Positions 2,814 to 15,411 of a stretch of DNA of 17,641 nucleotides are shown here, one piece after another (within the stretch, counting starts at the first letter, position 1; each line of letters starts with the position of its first letter). Source of the stretch: Promethearchaeia archaeon. Its GTDB lineage: Archaea > Asgardarchaeota > Lokiarchaeia > Sigyniarchaeales > SOKP01. The notes under the pieces were generated by a model. That model saw nothing but the letters and a program-made list of their open reading frames with translations. It did no database searches and was not told the DNA's origin. A program made the translations under genes and the position numbers. Where the stretch lies: contig JAHQWJ010000129.1 in the NCBI GenBank assembly GCA_029856125.1, positions 1 to 17,641 of the forward strand. The letters are read 5' to 3'.

Positions 2814-2940
2814 AATTCACGATTTAGAAGAGAAAACAAGCTTTTATAATTTATTGAATTAAAAAATAGGAAATACATACAATAAGTCTATCGGAAAAAA
2901 ATCCATCTACAAATTGACTTGCATTTTAAAAAATCATGTA

Positions 2941-2952
2941 AAAGTTTATATA
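2941..2952 (+). promoter_or_regulatory. Archaeal BRE/TATA box (AAAG-TTTATATA)
   Basis: TTTATATA at 2945-2952, preceded by a purine run. The ATG at 2979 is at about the expected transcription start position. Confidence 0.55.
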
Positions 2953-2978: not shown

Positions 2979-3065
2979 ATGATCTCAAGTAATACTGCTG
3001 CAAGAAGAGTTATAAGGTTATTGATATCCTTAAGTATTATTATCGTAGCAGTATTAATTCGATAA
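2979..3065 (+). CDS. Putative leaderless 28-aa leader peptide or hydrophobic microprotein (MISSNTAARRVIRLLISLSIIIVAVLIR)
   Basis: ATG about 27 nt after the TATA box; 14 of 28 residues are I/L/V; overlaps a hairpin. Not in the ORF track. Confidence 0.35.
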   Translation: MISSNTAARRVIRLLISLSIIIVAVLIR

Positions 3066-3120
3066 GCGAAACAATTCCGCTTGATCTTTTTGTATTATTT
3101 TTTCGCGGTTTTGTTCGCTT
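2990..3120 (+). promoter_or_regulatory. Two tandem RNA hairpins in the leader of the frhB-wHTH gene
   Basis: TAATACTGCTGC (2990-3001) pairs with GTAGCAGTATTA (3045-3056, one G-U), with an inner TAAGG/CCTTA stem. AAGCGA..ACAA..CCGC (3064-3080) pairs with GCGG..TTGT..TCGCTT (3105-3120). Confidence 0.55.
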
Positions 3121-3217
3121 GAAAAATGATATTTTTTTTAAAAGATCGTTGCATATTCGTTGCGTTTAAAGCTTGAGTAAGTTGAAAATCACAAAAAAAA
3201 GAAATGGAGAACCTAAA

Positions 3218-4642
3218 ATGGAAATGAAAAATCAAGTGAAAGATTACTTACAAACTAAAGATATTGATATCGGATTTCAAGATTTAACTGACTTAGTAAT
3301 AGATAAAAATAATTGCGTTTTTTGCGGATCTTGCATCTCCCTCTGCCCTCGAATTGGAATGAATGAAAAGGAACCAAAGTTATTAGAATATGATCCGGAA
3401 TGCTCTACTTGTTTTAGATATTGCCCAAGAACATATTTTCCTACAGAAATGTTTGAAGAAGAGTTGTTCAATGGTAATGCGAGTAAAAATTATTCAATAG
3501 GATACTATCAAAAGTTAGTGGCTGCTAAAAGTAACGACGAAGCTGTCTTGAAGCGAGCTCAGAATGGAGGTGTGGTTTCTAAACTATTGATTCATGCTCT
3601 TGATTCGGGACTTATAGATGGGGTTCTACTTACCGATAAGTATGATAATTGGTACCCCAAACCAGTAATTGCGAGAACTCCTGAGGAAATATTATCATGC
3701 GTTGGTTCCAAATATACGATTTCACCAACGTTAATTACTTATCGTGAAGCTATTAGAGAGTTCAAATTAAAAAAATTAGCATTTGTTGGTGTCCCTTGCC
3801 AAATCAACGCAGTAAGAAAGTTACAATTATCTTCCCCCCTCTCGGAAGAATATGGAAAGTTTAAATTAATCATTGGACTTTATTGTTACTCTAACTATAC
3901 CTATGATCTATTGAAAGCCTTCGTTCAAGGAGAGCTTGGAATACCGCTAAATACTGTAAAGAAGTTCGATATCTCAAAAGGGAAGTTTTATGTGTATATG
4001 AAAGACGGGTCGGTTAAACAGGTTCCAATTAAAATGACGAAACAGTATACCTGGAATAGTTGTCACTATTGTAAAGATTTCAGTGCAGAAATTGCTGATA
4101 TATCCGTTGGAAGTGCGGGAGCATTAAGTGATGATTGGAACAGTGTTTTATTGCGTACTGATATTGGAGTAAAAGTCTTCAATGATACTGTTAAATCTAA
4201 CAACTTAATTACTTCTGATAACATCGATCTTGTTAAAATTGAGAAAACTGCATATAGAAAGAAGACAAGAATCACCCAAATTGATGAAAAAATGTTAAAC
4301 ACTATGCGATTATTAGATATTTCTGAAGTCGAAATTAAAACTTACACTTCCTTAATGTCGTTAGGACAAGCAAGCGAATCGCTATTAAGTGAAGTTATGA
4401 AAGTAGAGAAAAACTTCGTTATAAGCGCTTTAGAAAGTCTAAAACAACGCGAGTGGGTTTTATTATCCAATGGAATTTACATTTCTGTTGACCCAACACT
4501 AGTCATAAATAACGAGATTAGTAAACTAAGAAAAAAATTCTTGGAAAAAATTGGAATACTTAATAGCGAAGTTCTCCCCGAATTAGAATCAATATTCGTA
4601 CGAAATAATATTAATCAAATGCGCCATAAAAAAGAGTTGTAA
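3218..4642 (+). CDS. FrhB/FdhB-family (F420-dependent oxidoreductase beta subunit) protein with N-terminal 4Fe-4S motifs and a C-terminal TrmB-like winged-helix domain
   Basis: CVFCGSCISLCP, CSTCFRYCP, AQNGGVVS, GSKY, VGVPCQI, IGLYC, CHYCKDFSAEIADISVG. The tail LDISEVEIKTYTSL...LESLKQREWV resembles a TrmB HTH. ATG 3218 follows GGAG and is preferred over TTG 3173. Confidence 0.88.
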   Translation: MEMKNQVKDYLQTKDIDIGFQDLTDLVIDKNNCVFCGSCISLCPRIGMNEKEPKLLEYDPECSTCFRYCPRTYFPTEMFEEELFNGNASKNYSIGYYQKLVAAKSNDEAVLKRAQNGGVVSKLLIHALDSGLIDGVLLTDKYDNWYPKPVIARTPEEILSCVGSKYTISPTLITYREAIREFKLKKLAFVGVPCQINAVRKLQLSSPLSEEYGKFKLIIGLYCYSNYTYDLLKAFVQGELGIPLNTVKKFDISKGKFYVYMKDGSVKQVPIKMTKQYTWNSCHYCKDFSAEIADISVGSAGALSDDWNSVLLRTDIGVKVFNDTVKSNNLITSDNIDLVKIEKTAYRKKTRITQIDEKMLNTMRLLDISEVEIKTYTSLMSLGQASESLLSEVMKVEKNFVISALESLKQREWVLLSNGIYISVDPTLVINNEISKLRKKFLEKIGILNSEVLPELESIFVRNNINQMRHKKEL

Positions 4643-9995: not shown

Positions 9996-10388
9996 TCACA
10001 AATTTTTATTCTTCTCTAAATAATCAGCAATATTTTCTACGAAATCTTGACCTATATTTAATAACCCCTGAGCCTCATCTTTACTAATTATGATTGTTGT
10101 TCCATAATCTCCAATAAGTCTTTTATCATATGCCCTATTAAGTTGTCTTCCCATTTCCTTTGAAAAAATATTTGTTTTAATGAAATTCTCACCAAAAAGA
10201 GAAATCAAACCACTATGAGATTTTGGTGCTAAATTTTTTGTAAGAAGCAATCCCTCGGTTATTAAAAACATAGCATAATAGGTTCTTGAAACCACACTAT
10301 CATAATCTTTTATTTCGAGTAAAACTTTTGAACTCTCAATAAATTTTCTTGCTTTTTCTACGAAAAACTTAATATCCTCATTACTCAA
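9996..10388 (-). CDS. HEPN-domain protein (toxin partner of the MNT-HEPN module)
   Basis: SRTYYAMF, KSHSGLISLF and KRLIGDY motifs. Its TTG start overlaps the MNT stop (TTGA). Confidence 0.88.
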   Translation of the reverse strand: MSNEDIKFFVEKARKFIESSKVLLEIKDYDSVVSRTYYAMFLITEGLLLTKNLAPKSHSGLISLFGENFIKTNIFSKEMGRQLNRAYDKRLIGDYGTTIIISKDEAQGLLNIGQDFVENIADYLEKNKNL

Positions 10389-10699
10389 ATTGAGATACCT
10401 TCCTCTCTTAAATTTAGGATAAAAGGATAATTTCTGGAAAAATAATCATCGTTAGATAATGGATGAATAGAAATTAAAACTGAATATTTTAAACTAAGAT
10501 CGTACGAAAATTCGGTAATCCTATCAATTTCTCTAAATGGGTTAATATTACCTTTCAAAATTACAGCAATATCTATATCAGAATCTTCTCGTTGCTCCCC
10601 TCTCGCATAGGAACCATATAATAACACATCTACTAACTGTTCTTTATAGAGTTCTATAAGTTTTTCTTTAAATTCTTTAAGTATCTTTTTTATTTTCAT
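10385..10699 (-). CDS. Minimal nucleotidyltransferase (MNT) antitoxin
   Basis: LYGSYARGEQREDSDIDIAV (GSx10DxD); translationally coupled to the HEPN gene. Confidence 0.9.
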   Translation of the reverse strand: MKIKKILKEFKEKLIELYKEQLVDVLLYGSYARGEQREDSDIDIAVILKGNINPFREIDRITEFSYDLSLKYSVLISIHPLSNDDYFSRNYPFILNLREEGISI

Positions 10700-10963: not shown

Positions 10964-11135
10964 TCAATTATATTAAAGAGGATGAAAAATGCAATAATCG
11001 GAAACCGTCACATCAATATATGAAAATCTACATAAGGCTAACATTTATATATGGAATTCGACATATGATGATCGGAAACCATCATATTAAATATAAAAAA
11101 ATTCACATAAATTTATTGAGGTGAGTAAGAAACAA

Positions 11136-11579: not shown

Positions 11580-13610
11580 TTATTGAGAAGCTAATGTATT
11601 GAGTTTTTTGGTAATAAGTTCAATCGAATCAACATATTCTTCTTTGTATTCAAGCTCAGTACTACAAATACCCTTGATTTCTTCGACATATTGTATGTCT
11701 CTATGATATTTGATATCAATTGCATGAGATGGACATGAAGATGCGCAAACACCACACCCGCTACATTTTAATTCGTCAACTTGGGCAATAGATTCTCTAT
11801 TAACTGTTATAGCATCATAGGTACAGACTTTTTCACATCTATGGCACCCCAGACAGAAGTTTTTGTCTACTTCAGCAATTACTAATTCTTGAATTATCCT
11901 GTCTTTAGAAAGTAAAGTAGCCGCTTTGCTTGCTGCTGCTAAAGCTGTTGAGACCGTAGAAGGTATGTTTTTAGGTCCAGCAGCACATCCACATATGTAT
12001 ATGCCCATTTGGGTCGTTTCTTGCGGCTTCAGGCAATTGTGAACCTCCGTTAAAAATCCGTAGCTATCTTTTCTCAAACCTAATGTCTCAATTAATTTTG
12101 TTGAATTTTTAGAAGGAACCATCCCCGTTGATAAGACGACTAAGTCAGCATCCAGATTAACAATTTGGTTTGTAAGGGTATCAGAAGCCGTAAGTGTCAA
12201 TTTATTGGTCTCTGAATCGAGTTGAATGTCTCCAACTTTACCCCGAATTGTTAAGATTCCCGCTTCTCTCACTTTTCTATAATATTCTTCGTTTCCTTTA
12301 TCCCAAGTGCGCATATCGATATAAAATATAACTATTTCCGTGTCTGGATATTCTTGTTTTAATAACTGAGCGTTTTTAAGCGCAACACTACAGCACACTA
12401 CTGAACAGTATGGGTTTCCGTTTAACGATCTTGAACCAACACATTGAATCATAGCCACTATTTTTGGCGTTTCTCCGTCAGAAATTCTGTAGAGATGACC
12501 TCCCGTTGGTCCAATAGGACTTAACATGCGTTCTAACTCAATTTGAGTAATAACATCAGGATAAATGCCGTATTTGTACTCGTTTGTTTCGATAATTGGA
12601 TACTCGTCGTAACCAGTTGCAGCAATTACGGCTCCAACATTTATGTCGACAAATTCAGGTTCTTGGTCGAATTCTATTGCTTCAGCTGGACAAGTTCTCT
12701 CGCAGCTATTGCATTCAATGCATACACTTCTGTCTATCGTAGCTATTTTAGGTACTGCTTGTGGAAAAGGTATGTAAATCGCGCTTCTTTCACCAATTCC
12801 TCTGTTAAATTCGTCAGGTACATTAATAGGACATTTTTCCGTGCATAGTCCGCAGCCTGTGCATTTTTTTTCGTTCACATAGCGGGGATTTTTCTTTATT
12901 TTTACATTGAAATTCCCTGGAAGTCCACTGAATTCAACTACTTCGCTGTAAGTAAATAATGTAATATTGGGATGTTTCGAAGTATTTACCATAATTGGTG
13001 CCAGAACTCATATACCACAATCGTCTGTGGGATATATTCTATCCAATTGTGCCATTTTCCCGCCAATTGTAGCTTCTTTTTCTACTAAATATACATTTAT
13101 TCCTTGATTCGCTAAGTCTAAAGCAGCATTCATTCCCGCTATTCCCGCACCTATGACTAAAGCAGCCCGTTTCACTGGAATCTCCTTATAAGGAACGATT
13201 TCTAACTGACGAGCTCGATTTATTCCTCCTCTTACCATTCTAATCGCTTTTTCAGTAGCATGTTTTTTATCGCGTTGGTGCACAAACGAACAATGCTCGC
13301 GAATATTTACCATCTGAAAGTAATAAGGGCTCAGTCCCGCTTCGATTAATACCGCTCGATATGTAGATTCGTGAATTTTTGGTGTGCACGCAGCAACAAC
13401 AACTCGGTTTAAACCTAAATCTAAGATATCGTTTTTTATGATATTTTGTCCTGGGTCGCTACAAGTGAAATCGTTTACTCTCGAAATTACGACATCTGGG
13501 AGTATTTCCATGTAATCTCTTACTATATCGCAGTTGACGCTACTACTAATATTAACTCCTCATTTGCAAATATAAACACCGATTCTAACAATGTTCTGTA
13601 AATCAGACAT
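11580..13610 (-). CDS. hdrA: Heterodisulfide reductase subunit A-like flavoprotein; selenoprotein with two in-frame UGA (codons 17 and 201), 676 aa
   Basis: SD AGGTG and ATG at 13610, then MSDLQNIVRIGVYICK-TGA-GVNI...VIGAGIAG...YPTDDCGI-TGA-VLAPIMVN... all in one frame. Both TGAs sit at conserved HdrA Cys (GVYxCxCG; DCxxC). It has ferredoxin motifs, IQCVGSR, YCSVVCC and GPKNIP. Confidence 0.93.
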
Positions 13611-13687: not shown

Positions 13688-14821
13688 TTAAACTATTGAT
13701 TTAACTTCTTTTATTGGTCCAAATTTAGTTTTCATGAAGTTTTCTTTTCGCTCGATTTTTGAAATTGAATATCGTAATAGTAGATTTTTGATGTGTTTTT
13801 CTTTCGAAGTATTGAGCTCTAAATTAATAAAAATTTTTCTCTTCAGGGCGTCTGCTAGTAATTCACGCCCCTTTTTTGTTCTTGTTATTACTGTGGTGAA
13901 ATGTTCTGGAGATCCTAAACCTCCAAACGATACATCAGCATATACGTTTGTAAAATCACTACACGCATTACAAGCGGGTCGCATATACTCTTTTAAATCC
14001 TCAAAAGGAATATGAAGTAAAGACTTTTTTCCCTTTAATCGGATGATAAGGTTTTCCTTAATCTTAATCTTTTCGATGTCCTCGAACTTTATCTTGAACT
14101 CCCCCTCAAATTGATTTACTTTTTGTTGGTCAAATTCGAAATTCTCGTAACAAAATAATCCTAAACAAAACTCTATATTATGCGAAGGTATGATGCCAAG
14201 ATTTTGCATGCACCTAATTGTATAAATTTGACACGGAGTTCCAACCACCGCTAACTTTTTAAACTTGGTACTGCTTATCTTAGGAAGTGAACTAGAATAA
14301 GAATGATACCTCTGAACTTCTTCTAATTGGTGGGAAATCCCTAATTTGAGTCCTGAAGTACTAAGTAAATCTTCTTTGTTTTTGGCTAAAAAAGGTTCTC
14401 TCGAGAAAGGGGCTTTTGTTTTTGCCACTATAGCTCCGTCTATTAACTTCTCTTCAAACATGAAATTAAGTAGAGCGTTTACAACTCCTCCGTCAGTACC
14501 ATGGCGCAAAAAGTCGGAATCTACTGATTGGCACGAGTAGAGATCGCAAATATTACCAAGTGGCATAGATGAAAAATCTAACAGGTTAAAGGTTTTATTG
14601 AGATCGTCGTCTAACACATGAGTCTGTGGACATATGTGATAACAAATTCCGCATTTCAGACAATTATCTTTATTTATAAATTCTGGAGGAGAATTGGGTT
14701 CTTTATAACCAATTACATCATATTCCATTGAGTTACAGAAGCTCACACACCCTCCACATTGCTGACAAATCCCTTTTTGATGGACTTCTTCTATTAAATC
14801 CTCAAAATTTTTAATTGTCAT
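13688..14821 (-). CDS. FrhB/FdhB-family F420-dependent oxidoreductase beta subunit with N-terminal 2x[4Fe-4S] domain
   Basis: CQQCGGCVSFC, CLKCGICYHICP, GTDGGVV, VGTPCQI, LGLFCYENF, CNACSDFTNVYADVSFGG. GAGGTGA SD; ends 77 nt upstream of hdrA. Confidence 0.9.
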   Translation of the reverse strand: MTIKNFEDLIEEVHQKGICQQCGGCVSFCNSMEYDVIGYKEPNSPPEFINKDNCLKCGICYHICPQTHVLDDDLNKTFNLLDFSSMPLGNICDLYSCQSVDSDFLRHGTDGGVVNALLNFMFEEKLIDGAIVAKTKAPFSREPFLAKNKEDLLSTSGLKLGISHQLEEVQRYHSYSSSLPKISSTKFKKLAVVGTPCQIYTIRCMQNLGIIPSHNIEFCLGLFCYENFEFDQQKVNQFEGEFKIKFEDIEKIKIKENLIIRLKGKKSLLHIPFEDLKEYMRPACNACSDFTNVYADVSFGGLGSPEHFTTVITRTKKGRELLADALKRKIFINLELNTSKEKHIKNLLLRYSISKIERKENFMKTKFGPIKEVKSIV

Positions 14822-15017
14822 ACTTCACCTCTAATGCTGTTTTTCGTTATCCCATTGTCTTATTCATAACTTTGGGTTTCTAAATCAATAGTGTAATACT
14901 TGTTTTTAGTCGTACGAATTTATGAAAATAATAATTATATCTGAAAAACTACATTTATCTATCATTCACAATAATATAATGTTATTTTTCATATATATAG
15001 GTATTGGAATATTAATG

Positions 15018-15101
15018 TCTTTATCGAAAAAAAAATCATTATGATCAATTTCAATAATCATATGTCGAAAAATAAACATAATTTGATCAATTCCGATAAT
15101 T
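15018..15101 (-). repeat. Imperfect ~41-nt tandem repeat upstream of the frhB-hdrA promoter
   Basis: Minus strand: ATTATCGGAATTGATCAAATTATGTTTATTTTTCGACATATG then ATTATTGAAATTGATCATAATGATTTTTTTTTCGATAAAG. A TATATATA box lies at about 14992-14999. Confidence 0.5.
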
Positions 15102-15411
15102 CAAATATATTTAAAACAGGGGCGAAATGATCAAAATAAGTTTCTACTGTAAGACAAGATGATGATCATGGTTAGAATAATCTAAAAAACTAAAATCAAT
15201 GAAATTGGTTAATTTTTCTTTATTTTTATCATTTGCCGCTTCTCACTTACATTTTACCCCATAGTTCGATACTTTTCTAACCGATTGACAATTTTTAGAA
15301 CTTTACAGATAAAATCTGGAATTTACAGGTAGATCATTTTGAAAGTTTCAAATTTTTTTTATTATTGGTAGTGTAAAAAAAAAAAAAATAGAAAATTTTA
15401 GGCTTTTCAAA

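Follow-up and report, generated by a model that had tools for sequence, protein, structure and literature searches.

The gene at 3218–4642 (+) of the window, i.e. the whole 17,641 nt stretch of Promethearchaeia archaeon DNA analysed herein, encodes a 474-aa protein in which a ferredoxin domain, an FrhB domain and a TrmB-type winged helix with coiled coil are combined; this is a real, and apparently undescribed, architecture. With moderate confidence, we consider its product to be a homodimeric flavo-Fe-S oxidoreductase with a TrmB-derived pairing module, the synthesis of which would follow the supply of isoleucine, valine and leucine (ILV) via the ribosome on an upstream mini-ORF.

Architecture and predicted fold

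The FrhB–TrmB fusion gene is free of internal stops, and short assembled RNA contigs of low depth fall inside its coding region, with none covering the upstream leader. An alternative TTG start at 3173 is unsupported, because homologues begin at the same Met as the 474-aa protein, at 3218. Pfam identifies Fer4 (residues 27–44), FrhB_N (101–172) and FrhB_C (185–333), bearing out the claim of an earlier note on this DNA that a complete Fe-S plus FrhB module is present, followed by a TrmB match (PF01978) at residues 366–416 with 29.8 bits against a cut-off of 25.6. The ferredoxin domain, in which two [4Fe-4S] clusters are expected, spans 3275–3442 (+) and contains Cys 33, 36, 39, 43, 62, 65 and 69. 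The FrhB-type FAD/[4Fe-4S] domain at 3518–4216 (+) harbours Cys 194, 223, 282 and 285, the QNGG loop at 115–118, and Ser225 at the position of Glu137 in FrhB.

In the full-length AlphaFold2 model (50-row alignment; mean pLDDT 90.6, pTM 0.88), the tail is predicted to form helices at residues 357–366, 370–382, 387–394 and 398–410, a hairpin at 414–423 and a long helix of 42 residues at 426–467. On the DNA, the TrmB-type winged helix (residues 357–425, with a short wing) occupies 4286–4492 (+), including a degenerate recognition helix at 4409–4447, and the long amphipathic helix occupies 4493–4618 (+) and is predicted to form an antiparallel dimerisation coiled coil. The closest fold to the tail is TrmBL2 (5bpd; Z 12.1, rmsd 2.4 over 110 residues). 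The winged helix and coiled-coil-like helix proposed earlier are supported.

The host genome (3.69 Mb, 33 % G+C, from a bin that is 99 % complete, with relatives in the Promethearchaeota/Lokiarchaeia) contains 13 of the many orphan FrhB paralogues known from Lokiarchaeia. The paralogue at 13688–14821 (377 aa) had been said to lack the tail, and Pfam indeed finds no TrmB match there. The architecture had also not been recognised as a described one, and no description of it was found amongst open papers. Elsewhere in the window, an HdrA-like gene at 11580–13511 (−) appears as a pair of ORFs separated by one in-frame TGA, which follows a CGI motif and probably encodes selenocysteine. A small nucleotidyltransferase and HEPN-like pair at 9996–10699 (−) displays, from its sequence, the usual archaeal toxin–antitoxin layout, and two imperfect direct repeats of ~40 nt lie in the intergenic region at ~10990–11110, which the earlier note had listed amongst its candidate promoters.

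Distribution and origin of the fusion

Fifty-three protein clusters of near length match the tail; FrhB domains are present in every one of them, and a precomputed TrmB match in 50. A tail profile at E ≤ 1e-14 identifies 54 loci in 50 of 400 Asgard genomes, nearly all with frames of 470–515 aa and separated by a gap from ordinary TrmBs (E ≥ 2.6e-9). As these clusters and loci carry the same architecture, an assembly artefact is excluded. By family, the loci are distributed amongst 44 of 135 genomes of the host's own family and all five of family f28, with one elsewhere. In f28 (L039–L042) the fusion is the first gene of an operon that also encodes a shortened FrhB, a FAD-linked oxidase and a CCG protein, and that in three of four loci is divergent from hdrA-mvhD-frhB-hdrC.

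A representative search adds two distant fusions, P0077 and P0076, the cluster of the latter being named from Ca. Argoarchaeum and Ca. Ethanoperedens (ethane-oxidising Methanosarcinales). The P0076-type gene (L059:1301-2716) lies behind an HTH gene and retains the canonical Glu, and the P0077-type gene (L061:5001-6374) lies directly after an archaellum-like ATPase and membrane genes. In a tree of FrhB cores the Asgard fusions form one group, adjoined by P0077, and P0076 sits on a long branch of unsure placement. Tail searches started from these two proteins returned only themselves.

With regard to origin, Atlas feature matches to the tail (0.83–0.86) are stand-alone TrmBs, and the Atlas fold search returned no TrmB-fused cluster. 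Since, outside the fusions, the tail is most closely related to ordinary TrmB-type regulators, its sequence was most likely captured from such a regulator. A common origin with the HTH-like ends of other FrhB paralogues was also considered, and finds no support either way (hhalign probability 2.6 % and 0.7 %). An 821-aa FrhB at L007:6032-8497 (−) carries a GltD/Nfn-like flavin domain within FrhB_C and terminates in an HTH-like region; it is located after hdrA-mvhD-mvhG-like genes, and the top Atlas fold match is to a similar cluster from Promethearchaeota. The FrhBs at L039:527-1921 (−), L053:5795-7243 (+) and L051:2947-4818 (−) possess a weak HTH-like region, below cut-off, before the ferredoxin, and one of the three has an MvhD-like start.

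Cofactors and substrate pocket

Little or no variation is seen in the seven ferredoxin Cys (all invariant in 35 non-redundant members), the four FrhB Cys, the QNGG loop and the G-S-x-Y loop, with the cofactor ligands invariant in 35–39 non-redundant members; for the second ferredoxin cluster, only three Cys are aligned. Glu137, which belongs to the flavin-lining loop of FrhB (PMC3930138), is replaced by Ser225; the Asgard family has small residues here, Ser included, whilst most paralogues keep Glu. This replacement falls in channel loop 131–138. The Ser209 region is retained, and there is variation in the GKGK turn, for which a role in holding the phosphate of F420 has been proposed (PMC3591093).

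The closest solved chain is 8riu_B, the F420-reductase zeta subunit of ethanotroph CODH (E 7.6e-61, TM 0.81 by target), the C-terminal extension of which forms a homodimer interface (PMC11493965). The fusion reaches 271.6 bits for NF006807 (cut-off 269) and, at 252 bits, lies below the cut-off of 331.5 for the FrhB equivalog TIGR03289. No frhA or frhG neighbours are present at the locus, nor do they regularly occur in the relatives' loci examined. Judged by its sequence, the protein would behave as a zeta/FpoF-type redox protein. With cofactor ligands kept and cofE present in the host genome, F420 is a plausible substrate, whilst the pocket differences may also allow a non-F420 organic one. 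From these features we infer the activity of a stand-alone FrhB-family enzyme, which would pass electrons between a ferredoxin-domain partner and a two-electron substrate at the FAD, be it F420 or an organic compound in the altered pocket.

Fate of the TrmB-type tail

In TrmB, Tyr50 and Asp51 of the recognition helix are named as important for DNA binding (PMC4158304). These residues align to Ile402 and Ser403 of the fusion, with Phe at position 400. Comparison of 41 non-redundant fusions with 41 stand-alone TrmB-like controls, drawn with the same profile, reveals Pro397 in 1 versus 29 sequences, Arg/Lys400 in 3 versus 28 and Tyr/Phe402 in 9 versus 39, with the last two occurring together in a single fusion but in 28 controls. 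The motif is thus lost despite the fusions being more alike overall (41 % against 34 %). Nor is there a substitute conserved DNA code, as the exposed recognition face is 21 % identical amongst fusions compared to 32 % amongst the TrmB controls. The first half of the recognition helix is acidic in the fusions (mean charge −0.8, versus +0.8 in controls), the winged helix of the 474-aa protein carries a net charge of −4, and its wing is three residues shorter than that of TrmB. Even in close orthologues, with 87 % column identity, no 12-residue window of the protein is less conserved than the wing, and column identity is 66 % for the exposed recognition face against 90 % for the predicted dimer interface. 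Entropy is likewise lower in the predicted interface than in the recognition face (1.42 versus 2.53 bits, p 1.3e-4, with positions that are not independent).

TrmB regulators carry their DNA-binding domain at the N-terminus (PMC9426492), unlike the fusion, in which the TrmB domain (residues 366–416 of 474) is C-terminal. At the level of sequence, the fusion therefore fails two defining features of TrmB transcription factors, namely the DNA-reading residues and the N-terminal domain position. A palindrome and word-enrichment analysis of 33 upstream regions of fusions yields no shared palindromic operator. The enriched words are those of the leader RNA described below and a GATCA+TATA promoter word of leader-less members only. 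GATCA directly precedes the TATA box, ~100 nt upstream, in leader-less L033–L038, L045, L047 and L049–L057. It is repeated in L027, L030 and L053 and before the FrhB paralogue (window 15010–15170), possibly as the site of another regulator. In the host genome, no redox regulon is marked out by clusters of GATC.

The earlier note had proposed a redox-sensing, sequence-specific transcription factor, and had named a degenerate recognition helix in advance as an outcome that would speak against it. Such a helix is what is found in silico, with Ile402/Ser403 for Tyr50/Asp51 and the basic–aromatic pair in 1 of 41 fusions; together with the net charge of −4 and the lack of a shared palindrome, this leaves the proposal unsupported. 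The region at 2880–2960, put forward as a target promoter of the protein, instead precedes the leader-peptide element. A sub-clade of leader-less members (L037, L038, L050–L052 and L054), which excludes the 474-aa protein, displays a basic face (+2 to +7) with Tyr and 78 % exposed-face identity, and may still bind DNA.

The predicted homodimer of the tail scores 0.54, whilst the best of three controls scores 0.00. This mark is reached by 20 of 30 solved pairs and by 1 of 23 single chains, although likeness to TrmB dimers may contribute to it. The prediction runs agree in at least 83 % of contacts, with pLDDT of at least 81, and place the interface at residues 355–366, 377–381 and 426–463, where the conserved tail residues fall. 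Invariant and exposed or semi-exposed residues outside the predicted contacts are Trp413, Arg411 and Asn464. The tail, having lost the DNA-reading face and kept the dimerising core, is probably a pairing or docking module, and as a TrmB-derived dimerisation module it probably pairs two copies of the enzyme. Against a pure pairing role, the whole winged-helix fold is retained although a coiled coil might suffice.

An ILV-rich leader upstream of the fusion gene

An element ~150 nt before the fusion gene combines a promoter, a mini-ORF and competing RNA folds. A BRE/TATA-like box at 2940–2952 (+) lies ~30 nt before the mini-ORF, a spacing conserved in aligned leaders, and from this we infer a start site that renders the mini-ORF leaderless. 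The mini-ORF at 2979–3065 (+) has 28 codons (26–29 in leader-bearing loci), of which 10 of the last 14 encode Ile, Leu or Val. Across 16 loci, Ile accounts for 40 % of the last 12 codons, Leu for 22 % and Val for 17 % (79 % in total), with ~1 % Phe, compared to 50 % ILV and 11 % Phe for hydrophobic segments of the host genome. At least nine ILV codons in the last 12 are found in 14 of 16 leaders, against 2.6 % of such segments.

Within the leader ORF, an RNA helix of 12 bp (2990–3056 (+); 2990–3001 with 3045–3056) has 89.6 % of alignment cells paired, and two of nine pairs with changes on both sides. From the leader stop codon onwards, the stem of fold A (3063–3121 (+); 3063–3080 with 3105–3121) encloses a U-rich loop. 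Here, 94.9 % of cells are paired (0/500 shuffles; slid controls 27–48 %) and 6 of 13 pairs are compensatory, a covariation that relatedness of the leaders can inflate. Complementarity and energies point to a competing long hairpin, fold B (3083–3147 (+); outer pairs 3083–3090 with 3140–3147), with a mean complementary run of 10.3 versus 7.2 in shuffles. The computed energies of the two folds lie within ~4 kcal/mol in 14 of 15 leaders, and fold B is favoured when the first 14 nt from the stop, i.e. the 5′ arm of fold A, are covered. Alternatively, the outer helix of fold B could make a pseudoknot on fold A. Fold A leaves the U-rich loop open, whereas in fold B most of it is paired, and there is no clear intrinsic terminator; U-rich signals are used by aCPSF1 (PMC7515710). 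A search of Rfam returned nothing near threshold for the leader RNA.

The leader precedes the fusion in 19 genomes, in which the surrounding genes are unrelated; the one in G163 has no identified ATG start. In the tree it occurs on the main branch as well as on the three deepest Asgard branches, and it is absent from 26 of 43 rows; with over half of the family lacking it, the link to amino acids may be specific to certain lineages. A covariance model of the leader RNA has two good matches in the host genome, before the fusion gene and leuS, and matches 93 of 135 family genomes. The genes downstream of it are leuS (with Leu-rich peptides), the fusion (Ile/Val/Leu-rich) and small acidic ORFs, the leuS leader peptides being 57 % Leu compared to 40 % Ile for those of the fusion.

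Several related elements are present in the host genome. A Leu-rich mini-ORF and homologous hairpin lie before leuS at G000:C126:25752-25909 (L072:1420-1577), as in many relatives, and a poly-Leu mini-ORF of 32 codons with a strong but different hairpin precedes leuA-leuC-leuD at G000:C140:6231 (−) (L065). At G000:C123:10400-11550 (−) (L073) there are tandem leader units, one of mixed composition and one Val/Leu-rich, each preceding an unannotated acidic ORF of ~57–68 aa and converging on an aminotransferase gene; this arrangement recurs in many relatives (also L103, L107, L122, L130, L139 and L142). Amongst open papers, none was found to describe such leaders in archaea.

We propose that the ribosome position on the mini-ORF chooses the fold. 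A ribosome at the leader stop codon would cover the 5′ arm of fold A and lead to fold B, and one stalled upstream on the mini-ORF would let fold A remain, coupling output of the gene to branched-chain amino-acid supply. The computed energies do not indicate which fold is 'on'; by analogy with leuS, where this is expected, output of the fusion most likely rises on starvation.

Metabolic context

Because the leader would read Ile/Val/Leu, the enzyme probably serves branched-chain amino-acid metabolism, e.g. as an electron supplier, a pathway assignment drawn from the leader. The possibility that it substitutes for ilvC was considered, as the host has ilvD, leuACD and several ThDP enzymes but no ilvC; ilvC is, however, present in 10 of 19 leader-bearing genomes, and the fusion is therefore not a simple substitute. 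The distribution of ilvC is patchy across the family, including its absence from the 99 % complete host bin. A mutase-pathway role was similarly discarded, with acyl-CoA mutase/meaB neighbours occurring in only two related genomes (G207 and G184). No branched-chain amino-acid pathway gene is a regular neighbour of the fusion in the loci examined.

Alternative explanations

A one-component transcription factor, in which FrhB would sense the redox state of F420, FAD and Fe-S and govern the sequence-specific binding of a dimeric winged helix to DNA, would account for the complete TrmBL2-like winged helix and dimer helix, for a gene that mostly stands alone and in f28 is divergent from the hdrA-mvhD cluster, for the basic, Tyr-bearing face of one sub-clade, and for an altered pocket that could suit sensing. 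We nevertheless judge it decidedly unlikely, given that the TrmB motif is lost in 40 of 41 fusions, that the recognition helix begins with an acidic half, that this face and the wing vary even in close orthologues, and that neither a shared upstream palindrome nor the N-terminal domain position of TrmB regulators is seen. Leader peptides, moreover, usually control enzymes, synthetases and transporters. In a related proposal, which we hold to be improbable, the protein would sense redox state through its flavin and Fe-S centres and act as a regulator, recognising DNA or a protein partner with a code other than that of TrmB, and its own synthesis would be set by the ribosome-read Ile/Val/Leu gauge; if true, a single circuit of Asgard archaea would integrate the supply of amino acids with the redox state of F420.

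Docking offers a further possibility, tentative and on the unlikely side, whereby the winged helix of a redox sensor or adaptor would attach the enzyme to a partner complex (Hdr/Mvh or another oxidoreductase) or to chromatin, as DsrD does on DsrAB. The invariant Trp413, Arg411 and Asn464 outside the dimer contacts would suit this, as would the recurring Hdr/MvhD/FrhB neighbours of leader-less members, the weak HTH-like matches on other FrhB paralogues and the non-specific DNA binding of TrmBL2 (PMC4877046). Yet no partner gene is conserved beside the fusion, the charge of the winged helix argues against DNA coating, and the paralogue matches are below cut-off. Finally, we give little credence to a general F420:ferredoxin oxidoreductase with no amino-acid link, the mini-ORF of which would encode a small membrane peptide or act as a generic translation gauge. 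Whilst the leader peptide is a basic stretch followed by a hydrophobic run, related mixed-composition leaders precede small acidic ORFs, and many family members have no leader, such a gauge accords poorly with the ILV richness and near absence of Phe relative to genomic hydrophobic segments, with the homologous, Leu-run element before leuS, and with the poly-Leu mini-ORF and hairpin before leuA. The homodimeric oxidoreductase under Ile/Val/Leu control hence remains our preferred explanation.

Significance and comparison with known systems

These findings correct an easy misannotation, in that a Pfam TrmB match on an FrhB protein need not mean a regulator; rather, an enzyme appears to have co-opted a regulator's dimerising scaffold. 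They also provide an orphan Lokiarchaeia FrhB paralogue with a concrete lead, i.e. branched-chain amino-acid metabolism, and extend the leader peptides of Asgard archaea beyond the leucine type (leuS, leuA) to an Ile/Val/Leu type with a non-obvious target. Being compact, the leader element could furthermore be used to report on control coupled to the ribosome in those prokaryotes that are most closely related to eukaryotes.

Amongst enzymes, the CODH zeta subunit (8RIU) and FwdI (8RJA) of Ca. Ethanoperedens thermophilum, and FpoF/FqoF-type proteins, share the N-terminal ferredoxin and FAD/[4Fe-4S] FrhB fold of the fusion. Zeta additionally dimerises via a C-terminal extension, although that of the fusion is a 125-residue TrmB-derived module. 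The fusion further differs from all of these in having no partner operon, a replaced Glu137 and leader-peptide control. FrhB of the F420-reducing [NiFe]-hydrogenase (TIGR03289) is alike in its FAD loops and four Cys ligands (35–37 % identity), whereas the fusion falls below the equivalog cut-off, lacks frhA/frhG neighbours, and possesses an extra ferredoxin and tail. HCAR (5DQR) and other FrhB-fold reductases of organic substrates demonstrate the use of this fold outside hydrogenase, at ~20 % identity to the fusion.

For the tail, TrmB and TrmBL2 (PF01978; 5BPD, 3QPH) likewise have an extended winged helix with an amphipathic dimerisation helix behind it; in the fusion, however, the domain is C-terminal, the Pro/Arg/Tyr motif is lost, the wing is shorter and there is no sugar-binding domain. 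DsrD is a winged helix tied to a redox enzyme that was long taken for a regulator, and was then shown to be an allosteric activator (PMC8794893). As a separate small protein from another winged-helix family, it provides an analogy only.

The leader has its counterparts in the ilv leader-peptide attenuators of bacteria, such as ilvL of E. coli. Further bacterial examples are the Corynebacterium ilvBNC uORF (PMC10272879) and the leaderless polycysteine uORFs of mycobacteria (10.1101/834739). As in the Asgard leader, a short uORF with many codons for the amino acids that are sensed precedes RNA folds that compete with one another. The Asgard element differs in having an archaeal promoter, no clear terminator and no Rfam match, and its target is an orphan redox protein, with the leader being homologous to those of Asgard leuS.
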